Shown in pieces: positions 24,001 to 30,000 of a stretch of DNA of 64,000 nt (within the stretch, counting starts at the first letter, position 1; the number at the start of each line of letters is the position of its first letter). Source of the stretch: an uncultured Nitrososphaeraceae archaeon (GTDB taxonomy: Archaea; Thermoproteota; Nitrososphaeria; Nitrososphaerales; Nitrososphaeraceae). The DNA lies in the NCBI GenBank assembly GCA_963729045.1, contig CAVSMN010000010.1, positions 64,001-128,000 of the forward strand, in the 5' to 3' direction. The position numbers were made by a program.

Positions 24001-27000
24001 AATTTGGATGAAAACATATTGATATCTGTATCCAAATCTATAGCAGACCTAGTTGACATTAAGCATTTAAACGAAGAATTCATCATTCCTAAAATAAACG
24101 ATCCGAGGATACTACCGGTAGTTACAAATTCCTTAAAGGAATATATCTTGAATCAAAATCCAAGATGATTAGAACACAATACAAAAATATGATCGTGATT
24201 TATCATGAAATGGCGTACTTAGATCCATCTTAAGATCAAATTTATCAAACCGATATTTTAGTTGCCAGCAGTCATATATCACATATGATTATAAAATTTC
24301 ATTAAATTGGGAAACATCCAAAAATCCTAATTTGACGATCCCTGAGAATGCATCAGACCATTTAATATCTATATGAAGAGAAAGAAGAAGAAGAAGAAAT
24401 GAAATATACAGTTTTAGTCACTAGTGGTAACAAAAACAAAAATGTGGTAATCTTATTAAGAGTTTAGTTTATCATCACTAATCATAGTAGTGAACAAGGA
24501 TTATGAAAAGAGACGACATTGAAAAATCTCAAAACGAAATCACAGATAAGAAAAATAATAATCCTGATGGTTTGAATTTCAACATAGATAAAACAGTTAT
24601 CCTGATTACCGGTGCGAGCGGGTTTATAGGAAGCAGACTGTTGAATGAATTGATTGAAAATAAAGAACAGAAAGATGTTAAATATTTTATACGAGGTTTA
24701 TCTAGACATAAAAATCAATTTGATATTGAAAAATTAAGGAATTCTCAAGTTTCAGTTGAAATTATGGAAGGCGATTTAAGTGATTATGATGATTGTGTAA
24801 AGGCATTATCAGATGTTGATATAGCTTATTATCTTGTTCATTCAATGGAAGGGTCATCCAGAAATTGGAAAAAATTCTCAGAAAGAGAAAAAATTACCGC
24901 CGAAAATTTTATGAACGCGGCAAATCAATGTAATGTAAAAAGGATCATCTATCTGGGTGGATTAACCTACGGTAAAGATGATGACCTATCTCAACACATG
25001 CAAAGTAGGAAACAAGTAGGAGACATATTGAAGAAATCGAAATCAAAGGTAACAATTTTCCGTGCAGCAGTAATTTTAGGTAGCGGCGGAGGATCATTTG
25101 AAATGTTAAGATATTTGGTGGAAAGATTGCCTTTAATGGTATGTCCTAAATGGGTATTGACAAAGTGTCAACCAATATTCATAGGAGATGTTATAACATA
25201 TCTTTCTAAATCTATCGAGATAAAAGAAACAGAAGGTAGGACCTTCGATATAGGGGGTCCAGATATACTTTCGTATTTAGACATGATGAAGATTTACGCC
25301 AAAATTCTTGACAAATCTATCAAGATACTAATAATTCCTTTTTTGACTCCAAGATTGTCTTCATACTGGGTAGATTTGGTAACGCCCATAAGAGCATCAC
25401 TAGCAAGGCCTCTGATAGACAGTCTAAAGCACGAATCAACAGTAAGAGACGATTCAATTCTCAGAATTATTCCTACTGAATTAAAGCCATTTAAAGAATC
25501 ATTAGAATTCTGCATGAAGGAAGAGAAAAAGTACAAGAAAAAGGGTAGAAGAAATTTGAAGAAAGAAAGAACATCTCTGTCAATAAACTACAAGATTCTT
25601 CTAATTTCTTTATTATTACTACTAGTAATAGGAACTACCTACTATTTTCTAGATGATAGAAAGACTTTCTTGGGACCCTTCTGGCTATCTATCGCAATCG
25701 TTTGGTATATTCTAATTCTAACAGCCATATACTTTGTACACTTTTGGAGCCAGGCTTGGTGCTTTGATTGCTGGAATACTCGCTTGGGGAACTTTATTCT
25801 TCTGGATCTTGGATAATGCGTATATTGTATTTGGACATCCAATAATAGCACAAAAGCCAGGAGCAGATGAAACATGGAGAGACATGATTGGAATAATAAT
25901 TGCAATCTTTACTATCTTATCATCCCACAATATCTTTCACAAGATTAGACTACACAGTTAATTTCATTTTCCCCAAACTTAATCCGAACGAAGGTTTTAG
26001 AATCAATGATATCATGATTTATTCTGAATTGACATCTCAATAATAATCATCCATGAGTATACGAGTTAGCACTAGTTACAATGCTTTAGCACTATGTTAA
26101 TATCTTTGTATTAACACACAAGAATATGGTTTTCATACGAGTAAAAAAAGTAAAAGGCTTTGATTATTATTATTTGGTAAAGAGCCAATGGGATTCGAAG
26201 AGAAAGATATCCATGCAACATACAATAAAATATTTGGGAAAGGCTACTGATGTAACAATTGATAGTATTCCTCCAGAATATAAGAATAATCCAAGAATCT
26301 TATCTCTGTTAGCATCAGTTACTCAAGAACATGAAAACAAAGTGGTCGTAATAACAGCTTTGAAAAAAAGGGTTTTTGATGCATTAAAGAATGGTGATAT
26401 TGAAAAGATAGCAGATGTTGCAGGAAAATACAAAGAACAGGCAAGCTTAGCTGAATTTTATGACGATATTCTAAGACCCGTTCTATATGATGTTGGGTAT
26501 CTCTGGCAAGAAAATAAATTAGATATTGGAATGGAACATGTCTGTAGCAACACGGCAAACAAAACAATTCACATGATCACAGATTCAATCAAGCCTAACG
26601 ATAAAATGGAGAATATTATCATATGTACTCCTGATGGAGAACTTCACAATATAGCCTGCAACATCATAGAATCCTTACTATTTGAAAAAGGGTTTCGAGT
26701 TATTAACGTATCACCATCAATTCCCACTGATTCAATGATTAACTATATTGATGAAACTAAACCATTTATGATACTTATTTCAGTTACCCTTAAAGATAAC
26801 ATAGGTTCGGCAGTAAGGCTCATAAAAAAGATCAGTACAATATTTAATATTCCTATCTTGGTTGGAGGACTAGCCATAAATCATAGTAGCGATATTGAAA
26901 GAAAAAATATAGAAGCTATTAGTCCTCATGTTAGAATAATTGTAAACTCTCCATTAACTGCAATCGTAAAAACCATTAAAGGTATAGCCAAGAGTAATAA

Positions 27001-30000
27001 CACAAGAAATATTAAGAATTTTGAGCAAGAGTTGGTAGTTTAACTAAAAAACACTCCTTCAGTAAGACACTGATGGGACAATAGATTGAAAAGTAGATCA
27101 AATTGATGAAAAATTAACCACTCAACATTTCTTTATTTATAGAGACCAATGATCATAATAATCATGTATATAATTTGTATAAAACGTTTTTAGATACATA
27201 CACGGATTATTAGTACAGGAATCTGTATTTCAGGATCTTTCTCTTATTACCCGTAAAGGATACTTTGCTTGTTCTTAGTTGCAAAATATTAGAAATTGTC
27301 GCCAAAATTTTTCATATTGGAATCTACCTGGTCTTGAGGATTTGCAGTCCCTTTCTTTTTATGTTCACTCTTATGAACCCTAGCGTCCATCTCTTTTTCA
27401 TGTTCTTCACGTACATGATGTAATCTATCCTTTTCGTGAATGAATTCTTTCCCACATTTATGGCATTTTAAGATCAACTTATGATGTACTGTTTTATAAT
27501 GATTCATCAGATCTTCCTCAGAACTAAACTTTTCCCCATCAACTTCGCAAGAATATTTATTATGAAAGAAATCCACACATCTTCTAGTCATAAGATATTA
27601 TTAAGTTCTTTTATTGTGTATTTGTGGCAGCATATCTACAATAAGAAAAAATCATTATCAATGGTATTTCAATTTATGAGATTAAATCTCTGTTATAATA
27701 GTAGATTTGTCAAATTCATGAAATGAGAATAAAAAGGGTTTGTGGATAAAGTCAAGTATCATATCAGACTAAGAATTCACAATATTCTAAAATATTACAT
27801 GAATAGATAAAGGATCAGCTTATCAGGTTAATTATCCAATCATACATAGGAATATTGGCAACAGCTATGAATGACATTCTAGAGTTTACAGAAAGATTAG
27901 TATTTAATTCCTTTCCAGAAGTATCAAAAATTAATCCTCCTGCTTCTTTAGCTATTAGATAACAGGCGGCCATATCTATTGCCCTTATCTTGTCTCGGAT
28001 ATCAATATATGCATCTATAGAACCACGTGCAAAATAGCACAATTCTAATGCATTTGCACCCAGGTGCCTAACGTGACTAATTGACGAAACCAATTTTGAA
28101 ATGGATAAAAAATGGTCTTCCGATAGTCCAGAAATATTCAATCCAATCACCATTTCTTTTATAGAAAGTGAAGGCTCCTTCGCAGTATGGATTTTTTTTT
28201 CATTCAAAAATGAGCCGGTGGACAGGGATGCATGGTATAAATCTCCAGATACTAGATTAAATACCACAGCATCAGTAACAGATTTTAAATTAGTATCAGG
28301 AGAATAAGCAAGTGAACAGCAGTAAAATGGCAATCCACAATTAGCGTTGGTTGTACCGTCAACTCCATCCATAACAACTAGTCCACTATCTTTGCCTTCT
28401 ATAAACCCGCATTCTTCTCCCACCACATCAGGATTAAAAGAATTCTTCTTTAGAATCTCAAAAACAGATTTTTCGGCAAGTAGATCAATTTTAGTGGATA
28501 CATCACCGCCTGCACCGATTCCAAACTTTTCTTGTCCCTCAACGGTTCCAATCAAATCATGGGTATTCTTATAAACATTAATAGCACATTCTTTTAATAT
28601 ATCTAAGATCGGCACATTGAATCACAATGATCTTATTTTAACAAGCAAATAAAAACTATGAAATCAAGATTCAGGGTGAAGACAACAAACCTAGAAAATT
28701 AGATACAAGAATATATACTTGATCAAGACTTGAAATTAAATGTTATTTAATCACATGGCTATGAAATATTCTTAGCATCGATAACTATATTGTACAATAT
28801 ACATCAAATTAGAAGAAAATTGTAAATTTCATCTATCAAATGATTGAGGCTATGAACAGCTTAGCCTCATAGGTCATCAGTTTTGTCTAAAGATTATATT
28901 AATTAGGACCTTATGACAAATAATAAAAACTCCAATCTCTTAACTACTGTATAAATGCGCAGAGAGGTAAATAAATTACAGAATGATTTGACGACTACCA
29001 CGATTACAAATGAGGAGCTTTTAGGTGTGGTCATAGGCGTAACTAAACCAGGATACATTACTTTTGAAGGTAAAGAGCCTGTGGGCTTAGGAGAATACAT
29101 CACAATAACAGAAGATCTTCAAAAAAGGATTCTTGGTGTAGTGGAATCATGTTCTATTAAGAGCGATGCGCTAGATGAGATTTCTAACTTTGAAGAAGCT
29201 CTAGAGAGTAAGGTCGTAGCTGAAATAAACAAGAGAGATAAGAGCTTTAAGGTTAATGTAAAAATTCTCGGCATGCTTGACTTGTTAAAAAAATCAAAGG
29301 CCATCTTACCGGAAATACCACCACTGCCAGGAACCGAGGTATATAGAGCAAAAAAAGATGATCTAAAGGACATTTTTGATTCCGAGGATGAATCATGGCT
29401 AAAGATCGGTATCTCTTAAGAAATGCAAACGTGAATGTCAGAGTCAACATCAATAGACTTACAACTAGACACCTAGGAATTTTGGCAATGACAGGTATGG
29501 GAAAAAGTAATTTAGTCAGTGTCATTGCAAAATCGATAGCAAAAATTCCGGGCACTATGGTGATCTTTGACTATCACGATGAATATCGCTTTCTACAGGG
29601 AGAGAACATAAATTTTGTACAAGCTCAGATAAACCCAAGATTATTAACATCCGATAAGTTTGGAGAAGTCATAGAAATAAGAGAAAACGCAGACATTCAA
29701 AACACAATATTACTAAAGGCCTATGATAACGATGATCTGAAAAAGAAAATAGGGGACGACTTTTGGGAGGAATTAGAGAAAAATGTAAAAGACATAGGTT
29801 TTAGGGAAAAGAGATTTGCAAGTTCTGCAGACAGAGTATTAGACAAGATCAAGGAAGCTAGGAGAAGATTTGATAGCATTTTGATTCCAAATGCATCAGA
29901 TCCTGTTTCTCAAATCAGAGAAGGTTGTATAAATATAATAAATCTAATAGAATTTACTGAGAAACAAGCTAATGTAGCGATATCGTTTTATCTCGAATCA

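Follow-up and report, generated by a model that had tools for sequence, protein, structure and literature searches.

CarH and the class I LitR proteins, including those of Thermus thermophilus (5C8D/5C8E), Myxococcales and Bacillus megaterium, combine an N-terminal DNA-binding module of the MerR winged-helix type with a W-x9-EH cap and a Rossmann domain that supplies a lower His. As AdoCbl-dependent oligomers that hold DNA in the dark and let go of it in the light, they act on direct-repeat operators lying over a core promoter element, regulate their own genes, control photoprotective genes (carotenoid, photolyase) and have photoprotective neighbours. The W-x9-EH motif is the mark of AdoCbl photoreceptor function and is missing from MetH and CarA (PMC8156234, PMC9304148); the role of the cap motif is described in the same papers and in PMC11796333. 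CtMerR (8JBS/8JBT) and the photocobilins SasPcob and AbDPcob (8J2W/8J2X/8J2Y) have all been shown to be light-responsive, and all four of the signature-bearing proteins assayed in that study responded to light (PMC11796333).

According to excerpts of the respective papers, archaeal ammonia oxidation is photoinhibited (PMC7484942), ammonia-oxidising archaea (AOA) make B12 (PMC7554672) and surface AOA strains have photolyases (PMC4839502). No photoreceptor or light regulon for AOA was found in the literature searched, and the excerpts of PMC6593220 and PMC13591554 contain nothing on the regulator described here. The DNA analysed, hereafter the window, is a stretch of 64,000 nt from an uncultured Nitrososphaeraceae archaeon (GCA_963729045.1, contig CAVSMN010000010.1, positions 64,001-128,000). 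An earlier note had proposed that one of its genes encodes a B12 light sensor. We give an even chance to the reading that the product is an AdoCbl-dependent, light-responsive transcription factor of Nitrososphaerales, which would work like CarH through another DNA-reading head without being a member of the CarH family. A conserved operator, a co-occurrence with UV-repair genes, relatives of the N-terminal domain in IS1634 and Fic proteins and the occurrence in family f15 are new here.

Architecture and cobalamin-binding core

The regulator gene (26126..27043, + strand) is a genuine ORF, and its 305-aa product consists of an N-terminal beta domain, a four-helix cap and a Rossmann cobalamin-binding domain. 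Pfam detected B12-binding_2 at aa 81-148 (41.6 bits; cut-off 23) and B12-binding at aa 164-250 (43.9 bits; cut-off 32.1), the full-length model reached a pLDDT of 90.2, and 1048 of 3203 candidates were homologous at E<=0.001. The cap (aa 69-153; 26330..26584, +; PF02607) contains G124xxW127-x9-E137H138, the motif that caps the adenosyl group in CarH-type photoreceptors. The Rossmann domain (26603..26995, +; PF02310) provides the lower ligand, G171xxH174, within E172-x-H174-x2-A177-x41-S219-x-T221-x25-G247G248. The motif D/E-x-H-x2-G/P-x41-S-x-T/V-x22-27-GG is thus present at exact spacings with Ala177 at the G/P place, as in CtMerR; this position is Ala in 50, Gly in 22 and Pro in 8 of 86 aligned full-length homologues.

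The light-response core described in the earlier note is present and conserved in these 86 homologues (G124 in 85, W127 in 82, E137 and H138 in 84 each, G171 in 85, H174 in 86 and P200 in 84), H174, G247 and G248 being invariant. The six core residues of GxxW, EH and GxxH are complete in 81 of the 86, and in 60 of the 61 regulators taken from genome loci. The caveat about GxxxP also holds. Here the motif is S196xxxP200, Gly occurs at its first position in 12 of the 86, and all four signature motifs including GxxxP are found together in only 10. For the Gly of GxxxP no contact to AdoCbl was found (PMC11796333). The text of the SignatureFinder supplement contains no archaeal term; its network of 1561 sequences may include archaeal Gly196 members that are not named.

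As claimed before, the top PDB sequence matches were 8J2X, 8J2W and 8JBS (E 5e-14 to 5e-12), with methionine synthase 8G3H behind (1e-8), and 8J2W, 8J2X, 8JBS and 8JBT occupied ranks 1-7 of the fold matches of the full model. Identity to CtMerR and the photocobilins is about 20%, and the archaeal protein differs from them in Ser196 and in having no enzyme domain. The biliverdin-binding globin fused in photocobilins is absent from the 305-aa model, and the matches cover the B12 part only. The residue after Trp is Gln, as in SasPcob, and not His, as in CarH. In an unfinished quick tree the Nitrososphaerales domains grouped together (98% SH-aLRT, 40 rows); GC-rich clades and MetH were not resolved, and no origin is read from this tree.

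Some databases, including JGI, name the protein MtbC1, a corrinoid protein of the methyltransferase type, and TIGR02370 is narrowly its top NCBIfam match (37.2 bits, against 36.4 for the CarH model NF052513 and 34 for NF041607). However, all these scores are far below the cut-offs (215.3, 400 and 350, respectively), and the cap carries W-x9-EH, which the MetH cap lacked in our sequence comparisons. No corrinoid methyltransferase occurs among 35 annotated neighbour clusters, and a methyltransferase role would leave the conserved operator and the basic extra domain unexplained; we consider it highly improbable. The product is most likely a light sensor that uses B12 and carries a small putative DNA-binding part of unusual kind. 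An intact CobA-type adenosyltransferase and methylmalonyl-CoA mutase are encoded in the host genome, whose PduO-type adenosyltransferase has an internal stop.

N-terminal beta domain

Residues 1-62 (26126..26311, +) form a basic (pI 9.9), three-stranded domain that we propose as the DNA-binding module, with strands modelled at 2-9, 12-23 and 28-39. No HTH family of Pfam or NCBIfam was detected in the regulator, the three strands standing in place of the MerR domain. Among the 86 homologues, Y14, V18, W22, Q31, Y36, G38 and P49 are invariant, and R5 and K7 are kept in 85. Searches against Pfam, PHROGs, NCBIfam and PDB sequences assigned the domain to no family, and among the matches listed by word-based searches with it there were only family members and their fragments (16 of 16, and the best 120 of 213). 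The description of the domain as novel stands in that no library contains it, but weak similarity to it was found at the start of an IS1634 transposase and of a Fic-domain protein (13.9-20.5 bits, three proteins only). The alignment runs start to start over residues 1-41/52 with the pattern Y..Y.V, Q....Y(L/I)G; hhalign gave 88% and 82%, and each of the three scores was reached by 0 of 500 shuffles. Fold searches with the domain-only model (pLDDT 61) yielded no usable match (best Z 4.0; none by Foldseek at E<=0.001), and the ESM Atlas matches (0.81) were at chance level. We found no paper on a DNA-binding role of the IS1634-type N-terminal beta domain; we infer such a role for it and for the domain of the regulator.

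Operator and promoter

Upstream of the regulator gene lies a candidate operator (26066..26095, +) of two 10-bp direct repeats (26066-26075 and 26086-26095; period 20) with the repeat sequence TTAGCACTAG. The proximal repeat directly abuts a TATA-like box (26096..26103, +), and the operator covers the BRE position. TFB binds just before the TATA box, at this position. The start codon is 30 bp past the proximal repeat, and the transcript would be leaderless. The CarH operator is built of 11-bp TnnACA repeats, three or four in tandem, whereas the archaeal one has two 10-bp repeats with a period of 18-20 at an archaeal TATA/BRE promoter. The site at 26066-26095, which was among the training sites, is the best of the whole assembly (33.1 bits; shuffle maximum about 22) and also matches the exact operator pattern. 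It is the only strong site of the host genome. The two operator-like sites that rank next, one within a TBP-like ORF and the other where a DnaJ-like ORF ends, fall in the shuffle range and were rejected.

Across relatives, the operator was found in 37 of 60 upstream regions, against 3 of 1200 shuffles, and also upstream of genes neighbouring the regulator. A total of 105 sites were found, 62 of them outside the training promoters, where shuffles give 1-2. Over 130 sites the period was 19 in 98, 18 in 24 and 20 in 8; a TATA-like box followed within 0-1 bp in 96 (random 2%) and an ATG lay 26-33 bp past the operator in 105 (random 16%). Background promoters are A-rich in the 10 bp before TATA, where the proximal repeat lies. 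The exact pattern occurred in 47 of the 64 genomes with the regulator and in 3 of the 137 without it (reversed control, 3/201). One of the three exceptions among the 137, G084, has a decayed regulator copy right behind the site, and the matches in G015 and G103 have no TATA-like box behind them. We regard it as very probable that the regulator reads the candidate operator.

The motif could instead be read by another factor of the island, such as a TFB paralogue for which it would be a variant BRE, with the B12 protein signalling through protein contact like an antirepressor. A TFB paralogue is indeed near the regulator in 12 of 61 loci, including this window (21769-22680), and the beta domain is a putative DNA-binding module. 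However, a search for the one paralogue examined gave matches at E<=1e-95 in 3 of 46 f13 genomes, and none in the motif-bearing G012, G105, G115, G092 and G142. In addition, a BRE would not be duplicated, the motif stands on the regulator's own promoter, and no other regulator common to the f1, f9, f13 and f15 loci was found; this alternative is very unlikely.

Given that the regulator reads the operator, light is its likely input, and given both, repression in the dark is probable. In the dark, the AdoCbl-bound protein would oligomerise and its beta domains would occupy both repeats, which are spaced by about 19 bp. Since the proximal repeat is the TFB-binding place, the bound protein would block transcription. 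Light would cleave the Co-C bond and loosen the oligomer, derepressing the regulator gene itself, in a predicted counterpart of CarH autoregulation, together with a photo-oxidative/UV module. This module would comprise the short-chain dehydrogenase (SDR), small membrane proteins, DUF6789, FAD oxidoreductases, a TIGR01777-like protein and a secreted protein, and in some genomes also a photolyase, a glycosylase or Dps.

The same sensor and operator might also work with the opposite sign, the protein recruiting TBP/TFB at weak promoters and either binding after photolysis or activating on the change from dark to light without release. Nearly all sites share one orientation at a fixed distance of 0-1 bp to TATA, as would suit an activator, and for archaeal RbkR, sites that lie 1-12 nt before promoter elements were interpreted as activator sites (PMC5397151). 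However, the proximal repeat lies inside the 10 bp before TATA where TFB binds, inverted sites precede the regulator TATA in 5 of 6 f15 loci, with a weak one at the GC-rich locus L147, and CarH-type oligomers bind DNA in the dark (PMC9304148). We rate activation as unlikely.

Neighbouring genes and UV repair

Among the partners of the regulator, the most constant is an NAD(P)-binding SDR/NmrA-like gene (24503..25961, +; Pfam), whose product has a membrane C-terminus. In the window it is frameshifted relative to G086 by one extra base near 25740-25742, which is absent from the contigs of three of four runs. The SDR had been placed near a B12-binding_2 gene in about 100 genomes; we found it in 56 of 201 (48 of the 64 with the regulator against 8 of the 137 without), and at 36 of 61 regulator loci it is the adjoining gene. 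A weak inverted candidate operator (24421..24450, -; 15.0 bits) precedes the TATA-like box of the SDR gene; alone it is not above chance, as the assembly has 18 sites of at least 14 bits against 14-16 in shuffles, and its equivalent in G086 scores 6.6 bits. Metatranscriptome contigs of two RNA runs cover portions of the regulator and SDR genes; contigs are silent on how strongly, from which strand and in what light a gene is expressed.

In bacteria, genes for photolyase, DUF1722/YbgA, a short-chain dehydrogenase and an FAD oxidoreductase lie beside those of LitR regulators or form part of photo-oxidative regulons (PMC11417400, PMC9758184, PMC4336711). The Pseudomonas PplR/PmlR, Thermus lit cluster and Shewanella RpoE2-ChrR modules contain the same gene types, a likeness of family type only, and are governed by a B12-independent class II LitR with LOV, by CarH or by an ECF sigma factor. 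No carotenoid synthase occurs among the annotated neighbours (35 clusters), another difference from CarH.

In the amoA-bearing families, a photolyase or pyrimidine-dimer glycosylase gene was found in 37 of 56 genomes with the regulator against 2 of 45 without it, a difference whose significance is overstated because kin are not independent and linked genes come and go jointly. The pattern recurs by family (f13, 17/26 against 0/14; f9, 6/6 against 0/5; f1, 14/23 against 2/18) and within genera (g30, 8/9 against 0/6; g16, 4/4 against 0/3). DUF1722 occurs in one family in 16 of 26 genomes with the regulator and 0 of 14 without it, and lies within 11 kb of the regulator in 16 of 16 cases; the glycosylase is within 9 kb in 13 of 22. 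Photolyase accompanies the regulator in 15 of 16 cases and lies within 9 kb in 7 of these 15. The earlier remark that no photolyase is next to the gene is therefore wrong for the family and true of the host genome only, in which (87% complete) no photolyase, glycosylase or DUF1722 was found. The proposal of a B12 light sensor is strengthened by the operator tied to gene presence and by the linkage to UV-repair and DUF1722 genes, and three of the accompanying points are amended.

Some of these observations would also suit a DNA-binding sensor of B12 status or of redox/oxidative stress that reads the operator with a natural input other than light. In the 300 bp before 10 of the 12 photolyase genes examined, all seven of f1 among them, no site scores over 6 bits; two of the 12 (G105 and G119) are directly behind a site, and those of G012, G169 and G196 via inferred operons only. 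Of 8 distant glycosylase loci, 7 likewise have no site of at least 14 bits in front of them. The genes that most regularly follow an operator are those of the SDR, membrane and secreted proteins and FAD oxidoreductases, with Dps once. W-x9-EH is widespread, 62 of 64 matches outside the regulator family having it, homologues occur in soil and hot-spring lineages according to database records, and in the 15 genomes of f15, a family with regulator and operator, no photolyase or glycosylase was found. However, no cobalamin-synthesis gene is among the annotated operator-led genes, photolyase, which requires light, goes with the regulator in 15 of 16 cases, and the four signature-bearing proteins assayed in PMC11796333 all responded to light. 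We rate a non-light input as unlikely.

Distribution

Full-length orthologues were found in 64 of 201 genomes of the order, close to the patchy spread reported before (13 of 46). In the four amoA-bearing families the regulator is present in 56 of 101 genomes. It is not confined to ammonia oxidisers, being present in 8 of the 15 genomes of f15, in none of which amoA was found.

If light is indeed the input, light-inhibited nitrifiers would gain a testable light-response circuit, in which protein, predicted site and target genes form a directly testable set. The regulator gene could serve as a marker for comparing light tolerance among AOA strains, the N-terminal domain may add a new DNA-binding module to those of archaeal transcription factors, and a compact green-light switch is a possible use. 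A broader picture, to which we give slightly less than even chances, is that of an archaeal one-component B12 photoreceptor in which a CarH-type sensor is joined to a transposase-derived beta-sheet DNA-binding domain. It would gate TFB access at the conserved operator of two repeats and direct the light/UV-protection programme in roughly half of the AOA sampled (56/101), the same half-site being retained in a GC-rich archaeal lineage far removed from them, and its presence would single out light-sensing, light-tolerant AOA strains.

GC-rich archaeal homologues of the regulator also exist. At one such locus, L147, the gene is surrounded by archaeal housekeeping genes, with an MMPL-like gene upstream, and the weak inverted site scores 7.5 bits, which we note as a lead only.

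The putative regulator protein

The putative 305-aa regulator (26126-27043, + strand) contains the Pfam domains B12-binding_2 (residues 81-148) and B12-binding (residues 164-250), both exceeding their cut-offs. The earlier note had placed it nearest to validated B12 photoreceptors, and this was borne out: the top sequences of solved structure were photocobilin SasPcob (8J2X, 8J2W) and CtMerR (8JBS), with methionine synthase lower. A predicted model built on 86 aligned homologues (pLDDT 90.2) gave the same proteins at fold ranks 1-7, above MetH and TtCarH. The conservation of the photoreceptor signature claimed before also held in the 86 homologues (G124 in 85, W127 in 82, E137 in 84, H138 in 84, G171 in 85, H174 in 86 and P200 in 84), all six core residues occurring together in 81. 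So did the suspected weakness of the GxxxP motif, position 196 being Gly in just 12 of 86; the complete set of four SignatureFinder motifs is present in 10. In the accessible text of PMC11796333, this Gly makes no cofactor contact. The accessible parts of PMC8156234 and PMC9304148 describe W-x9-EH plus a His-on motif as the mark of adenosylcobalamin photoreceptors, absent from MetH and CarA. W-x9-EH is widespread, being present in 62 of 64 matches outside the regulator family.

Some database records of homologues carry the automatic labels 'light-induced transcriptional regulator' or 'corrinoid protein MtbC1', and the regulator scores far under the NCBIfam cut-off for both. It is most improbable that the regulator is a methyltransferase corrinoid protein, which would account for none of the findings.

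A sub-clade (homologues P0155, P0158 and P0163) retains the beta domain and H174 and has lost W-x9-EH; these are possibly CarA-like B12-independent paralogues. A stand-alone W-x9-EH cobalamin-binding protein is encoded at L158:3458-4156 (G132, from a family without amoA), adjoining two genes whose products we take to be a TrmB-like regulator and an MMPL-like protein.

Distribution in Nitrososphaerales

Matches to the regulator were found in 114 of 201 genomes of the order, and full-length orthologues (best E<=1e-39; the remaining matches were MetH-sized frames or fragments) in 64: 23/41 in family f1, 26/40 in f13, which appears to be marine, 6/11 in f9, 8/15 in f15 and 1/9 in f4. The closest relatives are named Nitrosocosmicus and Nitrososphaeraceae, and one homologue cluster is named Nitrosocaldus. 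The regulator had been presented as one of ammonia oxidisers. The amoA-bearing families f1, f4, f9 and f13 do have it, but so does f15, in which amoA was found in 0/15 genomes; the regulator family therefore extends beyond ammonia oxidisers. Decayed copies lie at the syntenic position in G084, G107 and G197. Remote full-length homologues share 22-30% identity, one of them on a GC-rich archaeal contig. On that contig, an operator-like inverted repeat pair (L147:4242-4308; just 7.5 bits) precedes the TATA of an MMPL-like gene lying ahead of the regulator.

The N-terminal domain

The beta domain (residues 1-62) has a pI of 9.9, is three-stranded in the predicted model and occurs once in the source genome. 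Its lack of a Pfam match was confirmed, domain-library and fold searches having come up empty. A 19-sequence profile recovered, in 301 genomes of the phylum, the family and three weak matches, all close to N-termini. One is in an IS1634 transposase, which scores 217.7 bits with NF033559 (cut-off 100); the others are in a Fic-domain protein (L175:434-1351, G148) and in a truncated ORF adjoining transposase-like sequence. Comparison of weak matches by hhalign gave 88% and 82%; separately, 0/500 shuffles attained any one of the three match scores. Transposase N-termini typically bind DNA ends; for IS1634, no paper on this was found in the literature searched. From its charge, conservation, position and the operator, we infer that the beta domain binds DNA.

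The domain also stands alone, in 73-74-aa proteins (P0292-P0300) and one 136-aa protein. One stand-alone copy (L155:4253-4477, G086) is encoded directly behind a second SDR gene; such proteins would be either truncated paralogues or sensor-less competitors. The 136-aa protein (L152:2498-2908, G050, family f15) lacks a B12 domain and has matches in G040 and G093.

The predicted operator

A direct repeat lies upstream of the regulator, with one copy at 26066-26075 and the other at 26086-26095; a TATA-like box directly adjoins the second copy, and the regulator starts 30 bp on. Two copies with <=5 mismatches to a 10-base seed, read off the same data, occur in 37/60 regulator upstream regions vs 3/1200 shuffles (one of 61 regions, whose start was not found, was omitted). 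A matrix trained on these 37 regions detected 105 sites in the 61 loci (1-2 in shuffles), 43 at the regulator and 62 elsewhere. The latter precede a secreted protein (21), SDR (11), a membrane protein (7), an FAD oxidoreductase (5), DUF6789 (4), an NDH-2-like gene (3) and other genes, 3 of the 62 having no assigned gene. Remote sites lead a Dps/ferritin gene as well as genes for small membrane peptides and for flavin-binding proteins. In several soil-family genomes, near-perfect operators are followed by a 65-70-aa hydrophobic peptide without Pfam match (L133:1808-2005, L134:4453-4650, L136:4647-4844, L139 and L140).

The exact IUPAC pattern was found in 50/201 genomes, 47/64 with the regulator and 3/137 without, and the reversed pattern in 3. 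Among the three without it, G084 has a decayed regulator behind the site, and the sites of the other two lack a TATA-like box. That another factor reads the motif is an explanation to which we give little credence, the neighbouring TFB paralogue being rare (3/46).

The 130 distinct strong sites, drawn from 101 loci, have a repeat period of 19 in 98 cases, 18 in 24 and 20 in 8. The TATA-like box begins 0-1 bp past the second repeat in 96/130 (random 2%), and an ATG lies 26-33 bp past the operator in 105/130 (random 16%). The reading we favour, at about an even chance, is that the regulator is a CarH-like dark repressor, with beta domains on the two repeats and the BRE hidden until light. Its oligomer would set two beta domains onto repeats ~19 bp apart and mask the BRE in the dark, and light would cleave the Co-C bond and expose the BRE. 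The same sensor and operator could instead activate transcription, a rather unlikely arrangement, which the rigid operator-TATA geometry would fit (cf. the argument for RbkR in the accessible text of PMC5397151). While proposed to work in the manner of CarH, the regulator differs from it in DNA-binding domain and operator layout. No report of such a system was found in the literature searched, which covered few subscription papers, and the accessible text of PMC11796333 and PMC10979010 contains no archaeal terms.

Neighbouring genes and UV repair

Neighbourhoods (~6 kb per side) were sampled at 61 loci from 56/64 regulator-bearing genomes; their 973 ORFs were clustered, and 35 clusters, then 24 further proteins, were scanned against Pfam. 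SDR is the commonest neighbour (36/61 loci, 12 genera), followed by a secreted protein without Pfam match (22/61), a DUF6789-like membrane protein (18/61), DUF1722 (14/61), another membrane protein (12/61), pyrimidine-dimer glycosylase PF03013 (10/61), a flavin amine-oxidase family protein (8/61) and DNA photolyase (5/61). SRPBCC proteins also recur, and a DUF1731-bearing epimerase, presumably TIGR01777-like, is found at 3/61. At 12/61 loci, the regulator has a TFB gene nearby that carries no operator of its own; in the window, a TFB paralogue (21769-22680) is 3.4 kb upstream. According to the accessible text of PMC11417400, PMC9758184 and PMC4336711, bacterial light-responsive clusters typically hold DUF1722 genes, photolyase, SDR and FAD oxidoreductase.

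The SDR gene, previously put near a B12-binding_2 gene in about 100 genomes of the order, was found in 56/201, 48 of them with the regulator. The regulator accompanies class I-type photolyase in 15 of 16 genomes, glycosylase in 22 of 29 and DUF1722 in 16/16; photolyase and glycosylase occur together in no genome of 201. One or the other is present in 37/56 genomes with the regulator vs 2/45 without in amoA-bearing families (f13, 17/26 vs 0/14; f1, 14/23 vs 2/18; f9, 6/6 vs 0/5), and the trend recurs inside genera g30 (8/9 vs 0/6) and g16 (4/4 vs 0/3) but not g1 (1/5 vs 1/4). The earlier note had seen no photolyase beside the regulator, which is true of the source genome but not of relatives, where it lies <=9 kb away in 7/15; glycosylase does so in 13/22 and DUF1722 lies <=11 kb away in 16/16, these co-occurrence and linkage counts being patterns, not tests, because kin and linked genes are non-independent.

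Only 2 (G105, G119) of 12 photolyase genes examined have an operator site within 300 bp (0/7 in f1), and 7/8 remote glycosylase loci have none ahead of the gene. Three further photolyases (G012, G169, G196) sit downstream of sites in same-strand runs, and in G146, G176 and G179 glycosylase is the last gene of such a run behind a site. The sparse sites at these genes speak against a simple picture. A B12 or redox sensor with a non-light input would fit the missing sites as well as family f15, though we consider it fairly improbable.

The source genome

In the 2.85 Mb source assembly, the only strong operator site is at the regulator's own promoter. A weak inverted site ahead of SDR (24421-24450) scores within chance. 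Photolyase, glycosylase and DUF1722 were not found in this genome (87% complete), and its predicted regulon is sparser than in relatives. Its SDR (24503-25961) has one extra base near 25740-25742, absent from G086 and from contigs of 3/4 runs, and its PduO-type cobalamin adenosyltransferase (G000:C19:18100-18603) has an internal stop TAA; each of these could reflect decay or an error of assembly. A CobA-type adenosyltransferase (C7:30350-30871) and methylmalonyl-CoA mutase are intact, and an adenosyltransferase is present in 5/5 f15 genomes tested. At 28955-30561, a gene that we assume to be a HerA-like ATPase preceding a NurA/Rad50/Mre11-like region is split into two ORFs (154 and 388 aa), possibly by a third frameshift of the assembly; relatives have one ORF of ~530 aa.
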